A DNA stretch of 60,825 bases, filler included, from Hausera hauseri (GCA_046269625.1; 11 parts of 11 records of this genome joined end to end with filler, not necessarily neighbours in it), one strand, 5' to 3'; positions 37,279 through 50,373 are shown, numbered from the whole stretch's first letter. A program made the numbers and translations. Notes: generated from the letters alone by a model not told the origin.

Positions 37279-37605
37279 TTTCGGTTTCGACAAGGCGGCG
37301 CTGAATTTTCGGCTGCCCGCCCTAGGTCATTGAGTCGGACGGCACTGTTCGCAGGGACCCTGCATCGCGCCCCTAACTACATACCCACCTCATTTTTCCT
37401 TTTCCTTTTTTCAAATAACATACACATTTACACCATCAAGGCATCACAAATAAACAAGACACAAATTTATAACATCTTCTGTGCTTTCGTCTGTTCATCT
37501 GACTTTTACATCACACACAACCGCTCTAACGTACCCATCTCTGGGATCCTAAATCTTTCTTCGCCTCATATTCAAATCCGTATACACTTTCGCATCCGTA
37601 GCGGC

Positions 37606-40600
37606 ATGAATTCTTTGCCAACCGCAGACACCACGGATAAAGTCACCACGAAACCAAACCCCATTTTACTAGTCAAAAAATTCACTACTACTTCTGCTAA
37701 TAACTCTTCAACTCCTACTTCTTACGCTGATTTCCCTTAATACACTGAATTCTTTATCGACAACCAAGGCTGCAGCAAAACTTGGTTGCAATTTCACCAA
37801 CTGTGGCCACAAGCAAACAACGTTACCAATTCCTTAACTAAAGCACGCAACCTCCTTTTCTTCCTCCCTAACAATATTAATACACAAATTCATAACATTA
37901 TTAAAATTTTCGAACGTCCTGATCCGTATTCACAACTCTTCAAAGCCGTTCTTAAGATCACAGAAGTCTCAATGGGCACTATCATACAACGCTTCTTTCA
38001 CGACAACGCCATAGGTACACTACGACAATCACACTTTTTACGTACTTCTTTGGCACACCTACAAACCCTCGGTGTCACGAAAGAAAATAATCCAGAATTG
38101 CTTCGCCACTACTTCCTCAACGCGTTGCCCATCCAAATTTGGGCACTACTTACCGTCGTGGAGGACTCCACGGCTCTTGAAAAAGTGGCCTAATTAGCCG
38201 ATAAGACATATGACGTTTTGTACTTAGAATCCCTACCAATCGTTTCGGCGGCAATCGCTGCAAATGGTAATCAAAACAACAACGCAACGATAGAACAACA
38301 GCTAAATCAGCTACGTGCTAAAAATGCAGCACTGCAACGCAACAATTAACAATACTAATAATAAATTGAATGAACTTTCGCTGTCCCGCCGAAGGAATTT
38401 TGTCACTGATCGCGCCAATTCTGTACCTAGAAACCGGTCACAGTCGCCTGCGCGGTCGCCTATCTGCTATTATCACAGCAGATTCAATAAAAGTGCAAAA
38501 AAATGCGGACCAGGGTGCAGATTTTACAATAAAAGTTTTTTTGGACACTGTTGTTTGCATTTACCAGGCAAAGTTTAAAAATCAAGCACTTAAGTGCATT
38601 GCAGGCTGCACTTTCAAAACAGATACGAACGACGGACGTGCTACCTTTTCTTCTAATAGTCGTCCTAGTTCACCTTTCTAAAAAACTAAGTTTGCCGCCA
38701 GATGTCACGGAAAACTGTGACAAAGGCATTGCTTCACCTTCTGAATGCCGACACGCCTCTTTTTGCGGTCTTTACTCTAAAGGCTGCATCACTGTTCCCA
38801 CAACGCAATCCGTTGATTTCCTCATTGATACAGGTGCAGCAATTTCTTTATTGTCATAAACCTTTCCTGTCCAAAATTTATCTTTCAAAATCAAATCTTT
38901 ATACACCGATTCGGGTCAACCGGTGCACATTTCTGGCATGGCTAAACTATCTTTTACCCTACCAAATTTCCTTCACCTTTCCACTAAACGTTCACAGTTG
39001 CTAATGTTCAGACGGCAATTTTAGATTCTGATTTTTTTACCACATTATAATTGTTGGTTGACTGCAGTCAACGATGTCTGAGGAGTGGTATCACTGGCAG
39101 CGTTAGTGAGCATATAAATAGCATTTTGACTACCGCGCAGTCGATCGAGAAGCGGAGATCAGTTATAAGTAAATCAAAAACTACTTTTAATTTTCGTAAC
39201 AATTACATTTCATTTCGCAAATTTTTAAACTATAACATTGATATTCAGTCGAGGTTTAATGTCGATAATTGTGGTACTGTTACTTAAGTTAATTCACTCG
39301 ACGAAATCACTTCATCCAACACCATTTTCAATTCCACCGTTTTGCACCAAATACCAATTGACTTTATACCCGCAAACAATTCACAAATTGCATCCGCTAC
39401 TACTTAAGCTGCTTCACCATCATTACCGAATCTCTCGTAGTTGCCTGCAAGTTTGCAGCAATTCGTCAATACATTATGCCCATGCGTACTTAAAAAAGAT
39501 CGTACGTTTACTCCTGCAAACAGTACTTTGCACCACATAGTTAAACAGCACCAACGACCAATACGTCAAAAGGTACGACCACTTTCACCCCGTCGTAGGC
39601 ATGCCGTTGGAGCCGAATTTCTTGAACTAAAACGCTCCGGCATTGTACGCCGTTCCAAATCCCCTTGGTTGTCACATTTACATGTATAAAAAAGGACGGA
39701 ACTTTTAGACCATGTGGAGATTACTGACAGTTGAACAACTTGACCATTATGTTTGCGTACCCCCTAGCACTCATCAAGGATATCTTGCATCGCCTTCATT
39801 CAACCGCAGTTTATTCGAGCATAGATTTGGCCAAAGCATATCACCAAATACCGGTGGCACCCGATGACAGAAAAGACTGCTGCCACTACTACTTTTGGTT
39901 TCTACGAGTACCCGTTTATGCCATTCGGTTTGCGAAATGCCGTACAAACTTTTCAGCGACACATTGACTCAATTCTCTCAGATTTCCCGTCTGCGTACCT
40001 TTACATCGATTATATTCTGGTCGTTTCGTCTTCAGCCAAAAAGCACGAGGAACACCTCGTGAAATATTCCAACGCCTTAAACACTATAATCTGCAAGTCA
40101 ATTTTGACAAATGCCATTTCTTCAAAAAGCGCATCAACTTTTTGGGCCATTCTCCCAAACCAGATCCGGTTGAAGCCCTTAAGAATATCGAGTTACCACG
40201 TACGACCACTGAAATGCGCAGCTTCCTTGGTACACTACACTTTGCACATAAATATGTACCATATTGTTCTCACTTAAGCGGCGGCAAAAAGAAGCAGCCA
40301 ATTCAGTGGACACCTGAATTGGTTGATAAGTTTGATAAGCTACGTGAAGGAATTAAGACCGTCGACATTCTCGTTTTCCCCTAGCCTGACGCGGAACTTA
40401 TCCTTACCACAGACGCTTCAACCATTACGGTAGATGCTATGCTTCATCAAATCAACAAAGGAGAAAACCAACCGCTGGAATTTTTCTCTCGTAAGTTAAC
40501 ACCCCCTGAAACTAGATACTCAACGTTCGATAGAGAATTATTGGCCATTGTTCCGCTTTAAAGCAGTTCTCCCACCTACTTGTCGCTCGCCATTTTACCA

Positions 40601-41196
40601 TACAGATCGAGCATAAGCCCTTAGCTAACATCATGGCTATGAAACAGCCTTCTACACGCCAAGAACGACAAATATCATATTTGTCAACATTTAACTTCGA
40701 CATAAAACATATCAATGGAGTTAATAATTTAGTTGCCGATTTTTTATCTAGGTCGGTTAGTTCGATTAATTTTTCACCAATCTTCACTCAAGCACAACTT
40801 CAACAGAACCACCATCTCAGGACATGCTTAATTCTTTCAAGTCTTGCACAATTATTGACGGCGTGGCTTTAGACACTTCCAAACCAGGTCATTCAGGAAT
40901 AATTCATGCACCACCTCTGCAGGTGCAAGCATTTAATAGTGTACATTCGCTACACCACCCTGGAGCTAAAGCCACTTTTCATTTACTCTACGGACAAGTA
41001 ATTTAACCGTCAATGCGTTCCGATGTACAGGCATGGGTGTGTGGCTTGATAAAAATACAAAACAACTAAGCATCTAAAGCCATCACTATTCCACTTTCCC
41101 TGCACATCGCGTTTCGAATCCGTGCACATTGACATCGTTGGCCCTCTTCCTCCAGACAACGGTCATCAATTCATCCTCACCATGTTGGACCGTTTC
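37606..41196 (+). mobile_element. Degenerate Ty3/Gypsy, CsRn1-like clade (copy B), truncated in integrase by the contig end
   Basis: Colinear with copy A: WLQFHQLW, ELLRHYFLNALP, CYYHSRFNKSAKKCGPGC, FLIDTGA, RPIRQKVRPL, IDLAKAYHQI, MPFGLRNA, NLVADFLSR, HHPGAKAT, VHIDIVGPLP. Confidence 0.93.
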
Positions 41197-41296: not shown

Positions 41297-42000
41297 TATT
41301 CCGTTAGAATTGTGTCAAAAGATCCAACCATATTAATGCTGAGAAGTCTGCCCTTGATTTACAACCGCATTTATCTGATTGTCAGAATGATATTGTGAGG
41401 GAAATTGTTAATGAAATTGTTAATCCAACTGGTGATTCTTTCTGAACTGTTTTTATTGGACCTTTCTGCCTCAGCAGGCGTTTCCAGAACAAACATCTTC
41501 TGTTTTTTATTCAACCTGAGAATCAGCTGAAAACACAAGAAAGATGGTAGGCACATTCTGAAGATTTGAACGAGTTCGATCCAGGGCCATCCGATAGGCA
41601 AACTAGGCGTCAACTGAGTGTCGCACGCTTTAGAGGGACACAGGACTGACCTTTAATGTCAAAATTTTAAAAACGTTGCTAGTTTGTGAAATGAATATAA
41701 TTATTCAGGCCAGACACCAAGACCACCCAATCATTGACTAAAATACTGACCAGATCGCTGAATTTCCTGTATTTTAAAGAAGGTTATTTTAAATAGAGAA
41801 TAGCCCAGTCTGTGGTCCTTACTTTCATGCACGGTTCAACTGTATTCCAGTGCTACAACGACTGGATGTAGATTCAAGTGTGGTGGATGACTAGAAGTTT
41901 TTTCATGCTCCATACGCTGCATATCGGTTACGCGAGTAATCAGTATCATTCCCATTGAGAAAGAACAGGTTTCAGAATAAAATAAACACATTTATAAAAG

Positions 42001-42642
42001 GCGCCATATTTTATCAGCGCGTCTTACTAGAAATTAACAAAGATTTTTCAATATAAACACTTGTTAACTACATCCTACCATCCACAATGGAATGGTATGG
42101 TTGAACGAATGAATCGAATAATTCAAGGTATCCTGTCCACAAAAGTCGCCCATGGTAAGAAAGAATGGCACCAACATTTAAAAACAACTGCATTCGCGAT
42201 AAACATTACACCTACGAAAAGCACCAATTATTTACCATTTGAATTAATGTTCGGACGATTAACATTATTACCATTAGATACTGAATTACTACCATCTTCC
42301 TTGAAAACAAGTTACCACATGGATGTAAAATATTAAGATTTGCTAAACCGACTTGAGTATTTTCAAAAGGAATCTAAAAAATGTGAGCAAAAATACAAAG
42401 CCGGTTACAACAAGCAGTTTAATAAAAAGGCACGTCCACATACTTACAAAATTGGAGATTATGTAATGATACATTATCCCGCTGTAAAGAGAGGAAAATC
42501 GTTGAAACTGACACGCACATGTCAAGGACCATATAAAGTCGTAGATGTACGCCCACAAACAATTTTATCCAAAAAGGACCAAACAAATACAAAGCCGCAT
42601 CTGTATAAAGAGTTACGAGAGCTTCATAAAAAACAGAGCTAG
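42001..42642 (+). mobile_element. Ty3/Gypsy integrase C-terminal half
   Basis: TTSYHPQWNGMVERMNR, PFELMFGR, YKIGDYV, KL..TCQGPYKV (GPY/F module). Confidence 0.88.
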
Positions 42643-42755
42643 AATCCCCAGAAACGGTAGAATCGAAAGTAGCAGTTTTGTCTCTGAGAAACGATATAGA
42701 TAATCATGAATCTAATAGTTACAGAGTTCACCTTATTTCGGATAGATACTTCGGT

Positions 42756-44150
42756 ATGGTTTTATTTGTTTTCCTTGCGTTCTTGAAACTCAGCCGCTGC
42801 AGACAACAATACTGAATTGATCCAACGTACAACCATTACACATGTCGATAAAAGCAAACCTAGTATTTGCTTCAGAACGCCTATACCAGTTTATCCGCGA
42901 CGTGAAATAAAACTTGTATTCATGTCGTCAGATAATGTATTGACCAGTTGTTCAATCCAAGAAAAACACCGCAAAATATGTTGTCAACTGCGTTACAATA
43001 CTTCTTATACTTATTACGCGCTACTAAAACCTCTGATCAAGATGAATATGTTGCGGAATGGAAATCAAACATAAATATGCACATTTCCACTTACGGTATC
43101 ATCGGATTCCTGGCTGACTCAGACTTACCAAATTACTACACATTTACCACCCGATTCTTAGAGAATAATCTGGAAATCGTAGATTTCAATCCAACTACTC
43201 CATGTATAAATTTTCACACTATACGACTTTTACCTCTTGGATACGAAATCAATATATATTATTATTCTTACCCCAGATTTGTTCTGCAATCACATTCATG
43301 TCATCTGAATGGCGCACATGATCAGGTATGCTGTACTCTTTATACCGACATCTGGTATTCACTTCGTTTCGACATGTACTTAAGGATAGGTGACAATCCT
43401 TCCAACTGTATACACTCTTCCCGATTTCCATTGTTTATCTTCATTAAGCACGCACAACTAGCATCGATTCCGCGTTAAATAGTGGGTATACTTACTAAAA
43501 CTAGAACTACCACACTTATTCCTATATGAACTACCCGGGTAGTCAGCCCTAAGGGTAGGGAAAAAGATGGTGGAATATATAGAAATGATGAAGATAACAA
43601 GCAACAGTCAAAGCCGAAATTAAGCCAACAAATATTTCACGGAAAACTTATGAATCAGTTTCCAATGAAATTCAAGTTATAACCTTATACAAATAAAATA
43701 GAAATAATAATTTCTCAAGAAATACGAGGAAGAATTCGAATAACATGTACGAGTATTCACGAGAAAGTTAAAATCGAATTCTCCAAAGATAAACGAAATT
43801 TCTATGAAGGTTTAACACCAGCTACAAATTATTTTATGAATATACAAACAAATGATAATTCAAAATTATTGGCTATAAAACCATTACATACAGCTGATCG
43901 ATATCAACACATAATATATGACGAAGAAGATGAAAAAATGAAAAAAACCACACCTTTACCGGATACTACAGAATCAAACCCTCTTAAATATTGGTGGATA
44001 ATTGCAATAGTGATTTGATTCGGCAAAATATGTTTAATCGTAGTGAAATACAGTAACAAAGTGAAATGTAAAAGAAAGAGAAATAAAGAATATCACTACT
44101 TGATAATTCGAAGAAACAAAAATTACGAAATAATTCGAGACAATCGAAAC
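42756..44150 (+). pseudogene. Disrupted type-I membrane-protein ORF downstream of integrase (signal peptide, two FN3-like repeats, TM, basic tail)
   Basis: MVLFVFLAFL..SAAA^DNNT (needs one frameshift); two repeats sharing P.I.F.T...EI...VL.S..C...H..(I/V)CC.L....Y; KYWWIIAIVI*FGKICLIVV followed by KCKRKRNK. Confidence 0.5.
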
Positions 44151-46025
44151 TAAAAGACTGTGAAGACAAGTAATATTGAACCACAGAACATTTCAAATGT
44201 CATACCACTAATTCAGAATGAAATTCATAGAATAGAAGAATACTCACAAACCCATAGAATAGAGGAATACTCGCAAACTACCTTCTGTTTTTACCCTTTT
44301 TATTAATTGGATTGAATAAAGATGACTTGTAGGAAATTTTGGTAAAACATTGGTATATAATTCTTGTGATTGTCGGACCAATCATAATGAGTTACTTTAG
44401 TAAGAGTGTCTTAACCAATCGAATAAGAGAACTAATTTAAATTCACCTGTGTGCTGACATAAAAAGATACAAATTAATGATATTTCAGCAAATTTTCAGT
44501 TTAACAATTGACAACATATCTAGTAAAAGGATCAACGCTGTCGAAATGGAAAGCATAACTAAAGCGAAACACACAAAGATTAACGCTCTTGAAACAGCAA
44601 GCACAAATTCCAGACGAATTATTGCAAATGTTTCCGAAATGGGAGGCACAAGAAACTCCACAGGATCAGAAACAAAGGAAGAAACCGATAATATGGAAGG
44701 AATCACAAAATTTCAGTGATTCGCCAAACCATATCATATTCATTTTATGACAAGATAATCGCTCATCTTGACCGGGATAACCAATTCATCGACGAAGTAT
44801 CAAAAATTCCAAATTATTTCAAATATGGAGAAACTAGGAACAGACGCTTGCTTCCATTAAAATTATACCATTTTGACCCCATACTCCAACTTTAACAATG
44901 GATAGACGAAAATAAATGAATAATCGTTCATATGGCGTTAGTCAGAATACAGATAAATTTCCGCAAATTAGATAATAAAAAAGATCGAACAGAGATTATT
45001 AACCATCAAGAATCGTTGAAAATCAATTATACAGTAGACCAAAAAGGAACAAAAATTGTCACAAGAGAGATGTTAACTATTGGTCTAATTGAAGTTTACG
45101 TTGCAGAACAGACATATTCAATGCCAGAACGAAGAGGAACTACGAAGAGGATACAATATTTTATTAACGGACAAAGCGAAAAGCACGAGATACCTAGCAA
45201 TATAATTTGCGTACGGAAAACGATCGAATGGAACATAGATTCCACTACCTATTGAAATTATCATCGCAGAAGCAAACGGTGACATTATTTTCTCCGAAAT
45301 AATATCCCTAGAAGAGTAATAGAAATCGACACAAGATAGACTGGGATAAAATCCAAACAGGAATGGATGCACCAAAGCTCAGAGCTAAAGTTATTAAATT
45401 GATTTTAAGATTTAAAATCGTAGCGTTAGAAGCATACAAAACGCTTAATGTGCTTTGCATACCAATTAACCGAACTTGCGCAGTTGTTGATCCTATGAAG
45501 AATGTGGAGAACATCTCAAAGCAACCGATAACGAATATGTCAAATGATCGAGCTTTTAAAGTTGCCCAATTTTCCAAATACCACAAAAGGAATAGTCCAG
45601 TTAACAATGGAAGCACATAAGAGATCGATTGACCACTATTGATGGACACCTATTGACTCCCAAGGAAATATGCTTACTTATGGAGATTTGATGAATCGAA
45701 AGCCAAAATACATTGGTTCAATGAAATGAAAATTCGATGTTTAGGCAACTTTAGAAAAGGAACAAAAGCCAAGCACATTTCAACAAAAAATGAGATCGAA
45801 CAAGACGAATTTGACATGCCGAATTGCTAAATATCAGAAGGACAAGCACATGATGTAAATGAAAGCGAACCAAAGAAAATATTAGTAAAAAGGAAATGCG
45901 ATCCGACAGCACAAGTCCCAATATCTACCGAAACTGAAACTGTTGAAATGAATGAACTTAGGCGTCAATTAATTATGGCAATGATGGACCCGAAGAGAAC
46001 GAAAATTCAAGAGAATGGAATATTG

Positions 46026-46125: not shown

Positions 46126-49100
46126 TGATATGCAGTAGTACTTAGTCGTTCAATTTCGAAAATCTTAGAAATTTTGTCAAATAATTTGCCTGTAAAATTT
46201 CTTCCTCTATTGGTTAGTATTTGTTCGGGCGGTCCGTGTCTGCAGATGATTTTCTTTACTACTGCGTCGGCAAAGTTTCCGCTTTTTGACCGATTAGTGC
46301 GATCAATTCCACAAAATGCGTTAAACTATCTAAGCATGTCAAAATATATTTGTTATTTTTATGAGTTGTAAGCAAAGGTCCTACTATATCCATAGACATA
46401 GCTTGCATAGGCCTGTCTGGTACGTCGATCGGTTTTAATTCTGCTATATAGTTTTTCACTTTTCTTTGTTTCGTTGCACAGACTTCACAAGCGTCCACCC
46501 AATTTTTCACGTCAATATAAACACTTGGCCAGTAGTACTTATTCAGTATACTTTTTAATGTTTTCTTCCATAATATATGTCCAGCTAAATGTGAATCATG
46601 TTCAGCCATTAACACTTCCGTCCGTATTCCTTTTGAAATAACTACCAATTTTCGTCCCTTTTGTTTGTAATATAGAATATTATCAGGATTTGATGCACAA
46701 TATTTGTGTCAGTGTCTCTGTAAGTGTTTCTTTAGTTGACGTCCTTTTGATATCTCGTCTTTCTCTACAAATTTAACTATTTGCAGGATGACTTTATCTT
46801 TAGCTTGTTCTTCAGAAATTCTGATCGTTTTATTTAGTGTCAGGGTCTGCTGTGGCTGGACCAATTCTTCGAGTTGGGCTCTTTTCATGGTCGTAATTAT
46901 GCTTTTCTTTGTTTTAAGTCTTGATAGATCGTCTGCGTCGATGTGTTTGTTTCCCGGTTTATATTGAAATTCAATATTGTATCGCGAAATTTCCTCAATC
47001 CACCGATTTAATCTGCATGTCGGGTTATTAACCGTCCTTTTAACTTCGTGACAGCTTTGTGATCGGTAACTGTAACAATTTTCTGCCCGTAGACGTAGAC
47101 ATTAAAATGTATTAAGGCGCCTTTTACGGCTAGTGTTTCTAGTTCAGTGACTGAATAGCTTTTCTCAGCTTGCTTAAGCGATCGTCCTCCGTATTCAATT
47201 GGATGTTCTAATTCTTCGTCTTATCGTTTTTGAGCCAATTCATAATCAGTTCCTTCTTTGCTCGCATCCGTCTTGATTATGAATGGTAAGTTAAAATTGT
47301 GGTATCTCAACGCTGGTTAACTTGTTAAAATGTTCTTCATTTCGTCGAACGCCTTCTGTTCTACATCAAACCATTTCCATTTGATGCCTTTTTTCAATAG
47401 TTCATATAATGGCGCATTTATTTTCGAGTTGTCCGGTACGTTGGTGATATAATACCCGCATAAGCCTAACCAATGTCTTAATTCTTTCTGATTTTGTGGT
47501 TCCATACAATGGGATATTTTGCTCAATAAGGATTTGTCTGGCTTCGATACTCCTTCTCCAACTATATGTCCAAGATAAGACACAACATTTTGCGCCCATT
47601 TATATTTCTTTGGGTGCAGTTTCAATCCTGCCTGTTCCAATCGCATAAGAGTATCTTCGATGTTTCTTAGATGTTCGTTTTCTGTTTTTGATGCTATCAT
47701 TACATCATCTAAATATTCAAACGCATGGTCCAGTCCCACTTACATCTTATTCATTATTCTGGTAAAAATAGCTGGGCCGGTTATTATACCAAACGGCATG
47801 ACGTTAAATTCATAAACTCCGTCGTGCGTCTTGAACGCTGTTTTATAACGATCATCTTTTTCAATTTTCACTTGCCAGTATCCTGATTGTAAATCCAATG
47901 TGGTAAACCATTTTGTTCCTGATAGTCGGTCTGAAGCTTCTTTCGCTGATGGTAGTGGAAATAAATCCTTAATCACAAGTATATTTAAGGCTCTGTAATC
48001 TATATAGAATCGGTGTTTAGTGGTACCTTTTTTCTTGACCATGAGTATTGGTGAGTACCAAGATTAGTAGCTTGGTCGTATTATGTCAGCCTTTAACATA
48101 CGTTCTACTTCTTTGGTTATTTCAGGTCTTAGTGAATGCGGTGGTGGATACCATTTAGGCATCTTTTGCTCTTCCAAATCAATTTCATCATTAGAGCCAG
48201 GTTTCTTTTTTAATGGAATGGTTAATCTTAAGGTTTTTGCTCTGCCTATATCTTCTTCATTTTGGGCAATAATCGATTTATATCTGCATAGTAATTCATA
48301 AAATTGACTGTAGGCTTCTGGTGAAAACTTTGTTTCAACATGAGGTGGAAATTCGGCATATTTGTATGGTTTTTCTTCGATTGTTATTGCCAATACCTTA
48401 TATGTATGGCCCAATATAGTATTGGCATACAACTTTACTGGCGTTGTTGCATTGTTTACTAATCTGATTGGTACTCGTCTCGTCGTAACTCTTGTTAATA
48501 CGTTGCTGAATGATATTGGGGTTAACATCTTCTTGCGGCTCAAAGTAAACTGGTTGGTCGCCTTCTTCTCGAATCTGGGCATAAATTAACATTTCGGTTC
48601 TGGACGGAATATTTTCGACGACGGGAATCCATACTTCTCCTAGTTTCCTTTCTTTCATCGTTTTTATCCCTTTCACTAGTGCGAGTTCAGGTAGTTTTCC
48701 AGTCTGCAAATTTATTGCGATATTGGGTAATTGTTTCAGTATATCACAACCTAACACTACATCATCGGTTAGTTGATCCATTATGGCAAACTCGTGTCGA
48801 AGAATTTGACCCATTAATTGAACTAGAGGACTCCACTTAAACTTTGGTTTGGATTCTTGCCCCAAGGTTCCTATTCTGCTTGGATCTGACGACGATGCTG
48901 GCTGCAGCTGTTTTCGGAGTGCCGGCGCTATTGATTCTAACTTAATAAACGATTTTTCTGATCCGGTGTCGATTAAGGCATAGACTGTCCAATCTTCAAT
49001 GGTAAATTTTGTGAAGGGTCCCCCTTCCATAACTGTTCCATAACAATTTGACACGTCCTTTGGTCGTTTAATTGAAGAAATCTTATGTCCGTTTATCGTT

Positions 49101-50373
49101 GTTTCTGGTGGTAAAATGATATTTTCGGTCAACTGTTTCAGTTCTTTGTTAGGGTATAAGATGTTGATAGCTATGCTACCTGTGTTGTTTGTAATTAATT
49201 GTTCTTGTATTATTGTGTTTTGGTGTGATTCCCTTCCTTGTATTCCCCAAACTATCGATCTTGATTCTATATTACGAGCTATCCTTGGTGAGTACAAAAT
49301 TTTATGGTCATCTTCCGCTCGTCGCTGATTAATGATTTGCATTTTCTTCAATACTCCGTATGATTTTGTTCCTTCATAAGGGTCTTCATAGCTGACGGGT
49401 TTCCCATGGATTTCCGATTTGTATGACATCATAGATGTTCTGTCACATTCTTCATATATTGGAACTGTTGGCGGCATGATGGGTAACGGTGCCTTAATTA
49501 CTGAATACATTCTGTGTCCCTTTTGTCTGAGGATTGCTTCTCCTCCCTTAGGCTCGTCATCATCGGAGTTATCTCTTTGTTTTCTTGATTTCTTAACTTT
49601 GCATCTCCCTAAGAATGTGGATCTTGCTCGGCGTTTAGAATTTTAATAGCCGACATGCCGATAAACGTCGTTTTTCCATCGATTTTCTTCGTATGCCTTG
49701 AGCATTTTACCGAAAGGCGTGATAATTGCGGTTAAAATCTTGCAAGAAAATCCTGTTAGCGTGAATATTTCGTATACATTTATAACCGCTTGAATTACTG
49801 CCTTTATTACCTGTATAAAAAATTGCTAAATATCCGGATGCGGCTTGTCCAAAGATTAAAAATCTTCCCCATATTTTGTAGAGTATTTCCATGGTTACTT
49901 GTTGGTAATGGTTTGCACCAAGCAGGGATTTCCCTTTAGCCTGGTAACGGGTGTCGTCTACTACTGATGCCATAGCTCGGTTTAATTCGTGTGTTCGCTG
50001 CCGTGGAAAAGCGAGAAATTGTCGGAAAGCTTCGATCTACTTTGGTCTGTAAATGCCCTTTTGTGACGTATCCTGGAACTTATCGTCGGTAATCCCTTTC
50101 GCTAAATTAGTCCCAGTTAGTTTTTTAGGAATGATAGTGACACCTCCATTAGGTAAACTAACCCAATCCGCTTCACTGCGCCTAAACATAGGTTCACCCA
50201 AACTTGCCTTACAATCCTTTAAGATTGTAGGTTACGTTGCGTTGTCTAGCAACAACCTGGTGAGGGCCATGGCTAAGTGTGGAGGGCGTTCTTATATACA
50301 TCGTTTTTCTTCGACATTAATTGGTACATCTATTTTCTCGCACTCATATTTTAGTAGACCTTCGCCAGTAACT
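46126..50373 (-). mobile_element. Degenerate Ty3/Gypsy element (pro-RT-RNaseH-INT), a different family from copies A and B
   Basis: ALIDTGS; RFYIDYRALN, LDLQSGYWQV, KTAF, VMPFG, YLDDV; KTDAS; HDSHLAGH..YYWP..CEVC, SMDIVGPL. Confidence 0.93.

Follow-up and report, generated by a model that had tools for sequence, protein, structure and literature searches.

A predicted FN3-like membrane protein encoded in frame behind the integrase of a gB-bearing Ty3/gypsy element in Hausera hauseri

The DNA analysed here, referred to as the window, is a stretch of 60,825 nucleotides in which parts of 11 records of the Hausera hauseri genome (GCA_046269625.1) are joined end to end with filler. One of its contigs holds a decayed, 5'-truncated member of a multicopy Ty3/gypsy element that forms a large family, and behind the integrase of this copy lies the coding sequence of a predicted surface-type protein built of fibronectin type III (FN3)-like domains (Table 1). 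All the peptides that the initial annotation had quoted, namely the integrase motif (which we take to be a GPY/F module), the ATG at 42756 with its hydrophobic run, the domains, the stalk, the transmembrane segment (TM) and the basic tail, are present where it had placed them. The later hydrophobic segment, the second of the pair in Table 1, was likewise confirmed and is accompanied by an additional one. The window copy is damaged: its frame changes in the signal and in domain 1, and past domain 2, up to the end of TM1, it has four stops.

Table 1. Features of the contig that holds the window copy of the element.
Feature	Position	Strand	Basis or remark
Whole contig of the Hausera hauseri genome	41297-46025		Holds the decayed element copy
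Non-repeated flank	41297..42000	.	Element edge abrupt at about 42001, inside integrase
Integrase core, C-terminal half, decayed	42001..42444	+	Translation; sister copy L010 matches PF00665 and PF17921
Integrase GPY/F module (name presumed)	42445..42561	+	Seen in translation
Integrase-signal linker, one frame in undamaged copies	42562..42743	+	Unbroken in 11 of 30 contigs
Predicted internal signal	42744..42801	+	Hydropathy, alignments; frame change inside it in the window copy
Domain 1, predicted FN3-like beta-sandwich, four conserved Cys	42835..43088	+	Model of L140, fold searches, Cys pattern
Short two-helix connector (predicted)	43089..43169	+	DSSP on the model
Domain 2, tandem duplicate of domain 1, four conserved Cys	43170..43448	+	Model, profile, Cys pattern
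Thr-rich, then charged linker, variable in length, predicted disordered	43449..43658	+	pLDDT <50
Domain 3, predicted FN3-like, two conserved Cys, most constrained	43659..43889	+	Model, fold search, dN/dS, Cys pattern
Juxtamembrane stalk	43890..43991	+	Translation; domain 3 to TM1 unbroken in 24 of 32 contigs
TM1, then basic residues; internal stop in the window copy	43992..44045	+	Hydropathy 2.7-3.0, sister copies
Predicted cytosolic tail	44046..44282	+	Translation, sister frames
Two extra hydrophobic segments (44283-44314, 44351-44398), possible hairpin	44283..44398	+	In frame with TM1 in undamaged copies
Predicted cupin / double-stranded beta-helix domain	44731..45111	+	Model of sister copy L155
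Degenerate DEDDh-exonuclease-like domain, weak evidence	45188..45650	+	Homologous frame of the second lineage
More coding sequence, unassigned fold	45651..46025	+	Contig ends here

The 5' edge of the element is sharp, as 12 alignments begin at 42001 and none before it, and the summed contig depth, which comes from one contig-type run (possibly the source sample) and served only to place the repeat edge, is about 2-4 in the flank and hundreds to thousands inside the element. On the 3' side the window copy reaches the end of its contig, and sister copies extend to a stop, a PPT and an LTR. A DNA search with 42640-44425 matched 40 of 40 scored sequences (596 candidates at first look), 39 of them on other contigs at 79-90% identity, and a protein search with the natural 373-residue frame of the copy L018 (110 sequences scored of 2186 candidates) gave 121 matches and added subfamilies of about 40-60% identity. 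With all 40 scored copies matching and homology between domains 1 and 2, the feature does not owe its existence to chance. Gene-like fragments occur in the flanks of two sister copies (L019:281-616 and L151:207-773) and presumably resemble a TGF-beta type I receptor kinase and a purine-synthesis ligase gene. Another Ty3/gypsy element, decayed and of the ordinary gag-PR-RT-RH-IN type, occupies about 37600-41196 of the window, in a neighbouring stretch that is not contiguous with the contig described here.

The junction of integrase with the FN3-like protein was counted over 38 locus rows in which the GPY module and the beginning of domain 1 are both present, or 30 contigs once eight duplicate contig rows are removed. 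It is free of stops in 11 of them, in frame with one stop in two, carried across by compensating frame changes in the window copy and out of frame in 16. Three copies (L150, L151, and L163) read from the integrase core into domain 1 in a single frame, L140 has an open stretch of 716 codons that reaches from the integrase tail across the three hydrophobic segments, and the frames of L151, L150, and L155 extend into the downstream domains. TM1 and the later hydrophobic pair are joined without a break in six of 16 contigs (duplicates removed by hand, as for the counts from domain 3 to TM1 in Table 1). The linker, AT-rich and about 75-80 codons long, is both open and conserved in length in 11 contigs of several subfamilies. 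In a second lineage of the element, described below, 10 aligned frames run stop-free from GPY into domain 1, one of them spanning 1192 residues from RT to the TM tail. The linkage to integrase in many copies and a frame shared with pol via a predicted internal signal are supported by these junctions, and the proposal of a surface-type protein of FN3-like repeats is supported as well. The same is not true of the ATG at 42756 as a start: a Met does precede the hydrophobic run in many copies of the window's lineage, but it is missing in several open frames of that lineage and in all 11 aligned frames of the second lineage, and the aligned junctions show neither a conserved Met nor a pyrimidine-AG stretch ahead of the signal.

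The ectodomain of L140, a natural sequence, was modelled with AlphaFold2 from a shallow alignment (43 rows, that is, L140 and 42 others), giving a mean pLDDT of 75 and a pTM of 0.60. Local pLDDT is mostly >90 in domain 1, mostly >85 over domains 1 and 2, about 70-90 in domain 3 and <50 in the linker and stalk. Foldseek against PDB places three-domain fibronectin fragments first (E 3e-8), with TM-scores that are low because the domain orientations differ. With VIA-align, GH2 Ig-like domains reach Z 8.1-8.7 and FN3 domains score about one unit lower (Z 7.7), with rmsd 2.5-2.8 over about 88 residues for the two groups together and all values in a range that the tool rates as middling; the FN3 match is to the fibronectin EDB domain (Z 7.7, rmsd 2.8, 87 aligned), and the predicted strands fit a seven-strand beta-sandwich of about 90 residues. 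The fold search fits FN3 and other Ig-like sandwiches alike. Cytokine receptors and receptor phosphatases, typical bearers of FN3 chains, are among the fold matches. Three fold searches rank beta-sandwich chains at the top, and no fusogen is among the matches listed, beyond which further families may also match. Comparisons in the ESM Atlas, taken as leads only, score 0.85 to fn3 clusters for P0001 (an outside relative, see below) and 0.81 to unnamed clusters for L018.

Motif evidence is less uniform. The ectodomain has no significant family in Pfam, where fn3 at best reaches E 0.39 and Fn3_Dep-1_3rd E 0.063, both below cut-off, and the conserved strand-B Trp is absent at its expected place in domains 1-3. 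The N-terminal FN3 motif in the form initially quoted has no literal match; Leu-x-Pro-x-Thr-x-Tyr, which is an FN3 motif, is clear only in domain 3. On the fold-search results the three domains are therefore predicted to be FN3-like Ig-type sandwiches, though they fall short of Pfam fn3. Domains 1 and 2 are homologous in profile comparisons (E 1e-6 to 1e-12; 33 of 33 and 18 of 18 rows); judged by sequence, they are a tandem duplication and domain 3 is a distant member. The initial annotation had recognised this similar pair correctly but counted two domains, missing the third.

The signal-like segment consists of a basic residue, 13-15 hydrophobic residues and small residues ahead of the likely cut, and the hydrophobic run and the small residues at the likely cut recur in all aligned copies. 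N-glycosylation sequons in the ectodomain and the basic residues after TM1 fit a lumenal ectodomain, and hydropathy predicts a type I membrane protein with a signal, one TM and basic residues inside.

Selection was estimated as pairwise NG86 dN/dS on the open frames of alignment A1, in which pairs are not independent and the choice of open frames biases values slightly downward. Between subfamilies, where dS is near saturation, the values are 0.31-0.34 for domain 1, 0.29-0.35 for domain 2, 0.17 for domain 3 and 0.56-0.70 for the linker; among close copies they are 0.44, 0.49, 0.24, and 0.82 in the same order. The second lineage gives 0.40, 0.32, and 0.22 for the three domains and 0.05 for the integrase tail. 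The FN3-like domains are under purifying selection, in agreement with the dN/dS check proposed at the outset. The outer domains evolve faster than integrase (0.24-0.40 vs 0.05-0.10), a difference that might fit a binding surface.

The element that carries this gene also encodes a gB-type env. The profile PF24664 (gB-like viral fusion glycoprotein) matches frames of L012, L104, and L107 (E 4e-20, 8e-24, and 7e-19, respectively), and the gene sits between gag and protease in a GAG-ENV-POL layout. On one strand of L119 a signal, the gB-type gene, a TM region, protease, integrase and the FN3 region follow each other, RT and RNase H being deleted; the env TM region runs into protease in one frame in L098, and the order PR-RT-RH-IN is given by Pfam matches on natural frames of L077, L159, L010, and L262. 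A gag with a zinc knuckle (CCHC seen; PF19259 at E 0.002 and PF03732 at E 0.009, both below curated cut-offs) is linked to the pre-env region by L227. The LTR, of about 665 bp, starts with TG after a purine tract and appears to end with TA, and a TGG-type PBS follows it in eight loci; no single contig carries both LTRs of one copy, and the element size of about 16-17 kb is a hand sum over overlapping contigs, none of which spans the whole. Because the gB-type gene is on the same element, the FN3-like protein is an addition to env and not its replacement, and the earlier wording of a surface protein "rather than a classical fusogen" does not hold. The gene does lie behind integrase, as had been proposed, but it is not the last before the PPT and 3' LTR, about 2.5 kb of coding sequence following it.

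Several observations on the structure of other copies may be recorded. The LTR end appears to be TA, not CA, in L171, L176, and L179. At L213:1075-2169 the last ORF gives way directly to a single LTR, then to the PBS and then to gag, as in a tandem or circle-type junction. Internal deletions join gB to mid-integrase in L023 and protease to integrase in L119. A further GAG-ENV-POL copy lies on the minus strand of the window at 46126-50373, with a gB-type env fragment (49109-50372) that is 55-81% identical to the second lineage and pol-like sequence downstream.

Outside these copies, a full HMMER protein search returned a sole relative, P0001, a singleton of 479 residues (E 4e-10) with a matching signal, three domains and TM. 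Searched against the Hausera hauseri genome, P0001 matched 89 of 89 scored sequences (5357 candidates) at 34-44% identity, on other contigs. The second lineage is represented by 32 distinct contigs and again has the FN3-like gene 3' of integrase; as own-genome relatives of P0001 follow integrase, P0001 is likely to be element-encoded too. The gB-type gene is upstream of protease in the three second-lineage contigs scanned (L262, L264, and L267; PF24664, E 7e-39, 9e-9, and 6e-16), so that the order gB, PR, IN, FN3 is seen on single contigs of both lineages (L119 for the window's). Identity between the lineages is 43-49% for RT-RH, 30-35% for gB, 32% for the nuclease-like part and about 21% for domain 1, and all ten ectodomain Cys (4+4+2) align. 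The FN3 cassette is probably old, since the second lineage keeps the gene order and every one of these Cys despite such divergence. Identities of integrase and domain 1 correlate with rho 0.73 over 136 pairs, which mostly reflects the split between the two lineages; within the window's lineage there is no correlation (rho 0.13, 21 pairs). Word-indexed protein searches gave no match for L018 (947 candidates) and only itself for P0001 (3335 candidates), alignment A1 had no match among longer proteins (3159 candidates, which is weak evidence), and no relative of the FN3-like protein was found in viral contigs. Nor did a host source gene emerge, the searches returning only element copies and P0001. 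The TM tail of the second lineage ends in a conserved Tyr motif of the Y-x-x-hydrophobic type known from sorting signals.

The region downstream of the membrane protein is heterogeneous. Between the last hydrophobic segment and the cupin, short repeated peptide units occur in variable number (window, about 44520-44700; L151:2988-3200; L026). The cupin is predicted from a model of L155 that has a pLDDT of 73-87 over the cupin part only and is unreliable beyond it (best Z 10.2, rmsd 2.7, 101 aligned; Foldseek E 6e-5). A dead DEDDh-like domain is weakly supported, as the corresponding second-lineage frame (32% identical) has only two PDB matches, ISG20L2 (E 0.46) and SDN1 (E 0.94), and a profile of the downstream region had no match among PDB sequences. 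The second lineage has a RING finger in its downstream region. In that lineage one stop separates the end of the FN3-TM frame from the cupin/nuclease frame (for example in L256:1363-1371, L276, L267). The sequence CARYYA, a known readthrough signal according to the accessible text of PMC4132726, follows 18 of 26 located stops (17 TGA and one TAA); three of the 26 are mis-anchored and two more copies have no nearby stop. About 30 codons past this stop there is a pyrimidine tract with AG, followed by a Met, so splicing is also possible there. The window's lineage has no stop at the boundary of TM tail and cupin.

With gene order, the in-frame junction, conservation and selection established, it seems to us an evenly balanced proposition that the element encodes a gB-type fusogen together with an in-frame, post-integrase type I FN3-like glycoprotein that likely acts in attachment alongside the fusogen. 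The polyprotein would enter the ER at two points, the env signal and the internal signal, and both ectodomains would be released into the lumen by signal peptidase. PR-RT-RH-IN would then form a cytosolic loop held by the env TM and the internal signal until the element protease trims it; counting the hydrophobic segments would put Pol and the downstream domains in the cytosol, provided that env spans the membrane once and the last pair is a hairpin. Both glycoproteins could reach the budding membrane; the FN3 chain might recognise a partner on the cell surface or in the matrix, and gB would carry out fusion. The wider picture, in which an old enveloped Ty3/gypsy lineage enters cells with two glycoproteins, a gB fusogen and an FN3-chain attachment protein made from one polyprotein with Pol between two anchors, is put forward more tentatively, as something short of probable.

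In herpesviruses gB is assisted by distinct receptor-binding proteins; in rhabdoviruses and baculoviruses a single protein, G and GP64 respectively, performs both attachment and fusion. The gB of this element may need no partner, given the latter precedents and because most GAG-ENV-POL gB elements in the accessible text of PMC13524379 are described without a second surface protein; the junction broken in 19 of 30 contigs also speaks against attachment. The main rival, which we nevertheless consider unlikely, is that the FN3-like protein acts on the producing cell as a receptor mimic or decoy that dampens signaling or immunity, or blocks re-entry of related elements. A decoy would also fit with the cupin, nuclease-like and RING domains that adjoin the gene and look host-directed, and it would suit the FN3 chains typical of the receptors found among the fold matches, the tyrosine motif of the second-lineage tail and the accessory domains of the planarian element Burro, which are read as host-meddling (PMC6431247). 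However, the searches found no host gene from which a decoy could derive, the tail has no signaling domain, and synthesis in one frame and in one-to-one ratio with the fusogen suits a component of the particle.

The remaining readings concern how, or whether, the ectodomain is used. Production from a separate subgenomic or spliced RNA, as for env of Drosophila gypsy, with the open junction incidental, would follow the habit of gypsy-like env genes, which usually have their own ORF (PMC6431247), and many window-lineage copies do have a Met in the right place; it is rendered improbable by the open linker of conserved length, by the second lineage, which has no such Met, and by the aligned junctions, which have no acceptor-like tract before the signal. 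Quite improbable, too, is a role confined to the signal and TM, which would cut and anchor the polyprotein with the ectodomain as a passenger spacer: the weakly constrained linker agrees with it, but the ten invariant Cys and the dN/dS of 0.17-0.40 that the three folded domains show in both lineages do not. Least credible of all is a fusogen-less element in which the FN3-like protein replaces env. The place behind integrase is the usual place of env, and in the accessible text of PMC4299795 CrocERV31 swapped env for a nectin3 with three Ig domains, but here both lineages have contigs on which a gB-type gene precedes protease, and the occurrence of gB and FN3 together on L119, L262, L264, and L267 refutes an env substitute.

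If the attachment reading is true, entry with two glycoproteins would parallel, in a retroelement, the division of attachment and fusion between different proteins in herpes- and paramyxoviruses. For hardly any env-bearing invertebrate retroelement is it established how target cells are reached (PMC13524379), and a second surface protein kept beside the fusogen in lineages whose RTs are <50% identical is a candidate determinant of tropism, or else a candidate decoy directed at the host. Surveys restricted to gag, pol and env would miss the FN3-like gene, and its place behind integrase invites mislabelling as env.

Parts of this arrangement are already known, namely the env-before-pol layout, capture of surface proteins by retroviruses (PMC4299795, accessible text) and extra ORFs after pol (PMC5408684, accessible text). 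An FN3-type membrane protein fused behind integrase and kept beside a fusogen did not appear among the listed hits of full-text searches of the open-access literature. The closest relatives in layout are the GAG-ENV-POL errantiviruses with HSV/gB-type ENV of Nematoda, Bryozoa and Platyhelminthes (Chary and Hayashi, eLife 2026, PMC13524379), which, in the accessible part of that report, share Ty3/gypsy pol and a gB-type env between gag and pol with the present element; a chromodomain is the only post-integrase domain named there, whereas here it is an FN3-like protein, and "fibronectin" and "immunoglobulin" do not occur in its main text. Burro (GYPSM1; PMC6431247) similarly has an env, related to mononegavirus fusion proteins, in frame between gag and pol, a very long polyprotein and accessory domains, but it exceeds 30 kb (about 16-17 kb here) and carries MATH, BIR, BCL2 and ankyrin domains between gag and env, none of which matched in the two gag-env-region frames scanned here; the review names no post-integrase membrane protein. 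In the accessible text of PMC5408684, LTR elements of bdelloid rotifers have extra ORFs after pol, including small TM proteins and DEDD-type exonucleases, as a likeness, but these ORF3s are separate and stand in place of env, and the word "fibronectin" is absent from that text. The planarian secretory cell nidovirus also has a single very long ORF with fibronectin-named domains; it is an RNA virus, however, and its fibronectin type II domain is an unrelated fold (PMC7968707, accessible text). CrocERV31 with nectin3 and CrocERV29 with KIT ligand, as presented in the accessible text of PMC4299795, resemble the present case in that an LTR element carries a three-domain Ig-type surface protein, or a ligand between pol and env, under purifying selection. 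They belong to the Retroviridae, the captured genes are recent and still share about 76% identity with their host source, and nectin3 replaces env, whereas the element described here keeps its env and has the FN3-like gene, which has no recognisable host source, fused to pol.
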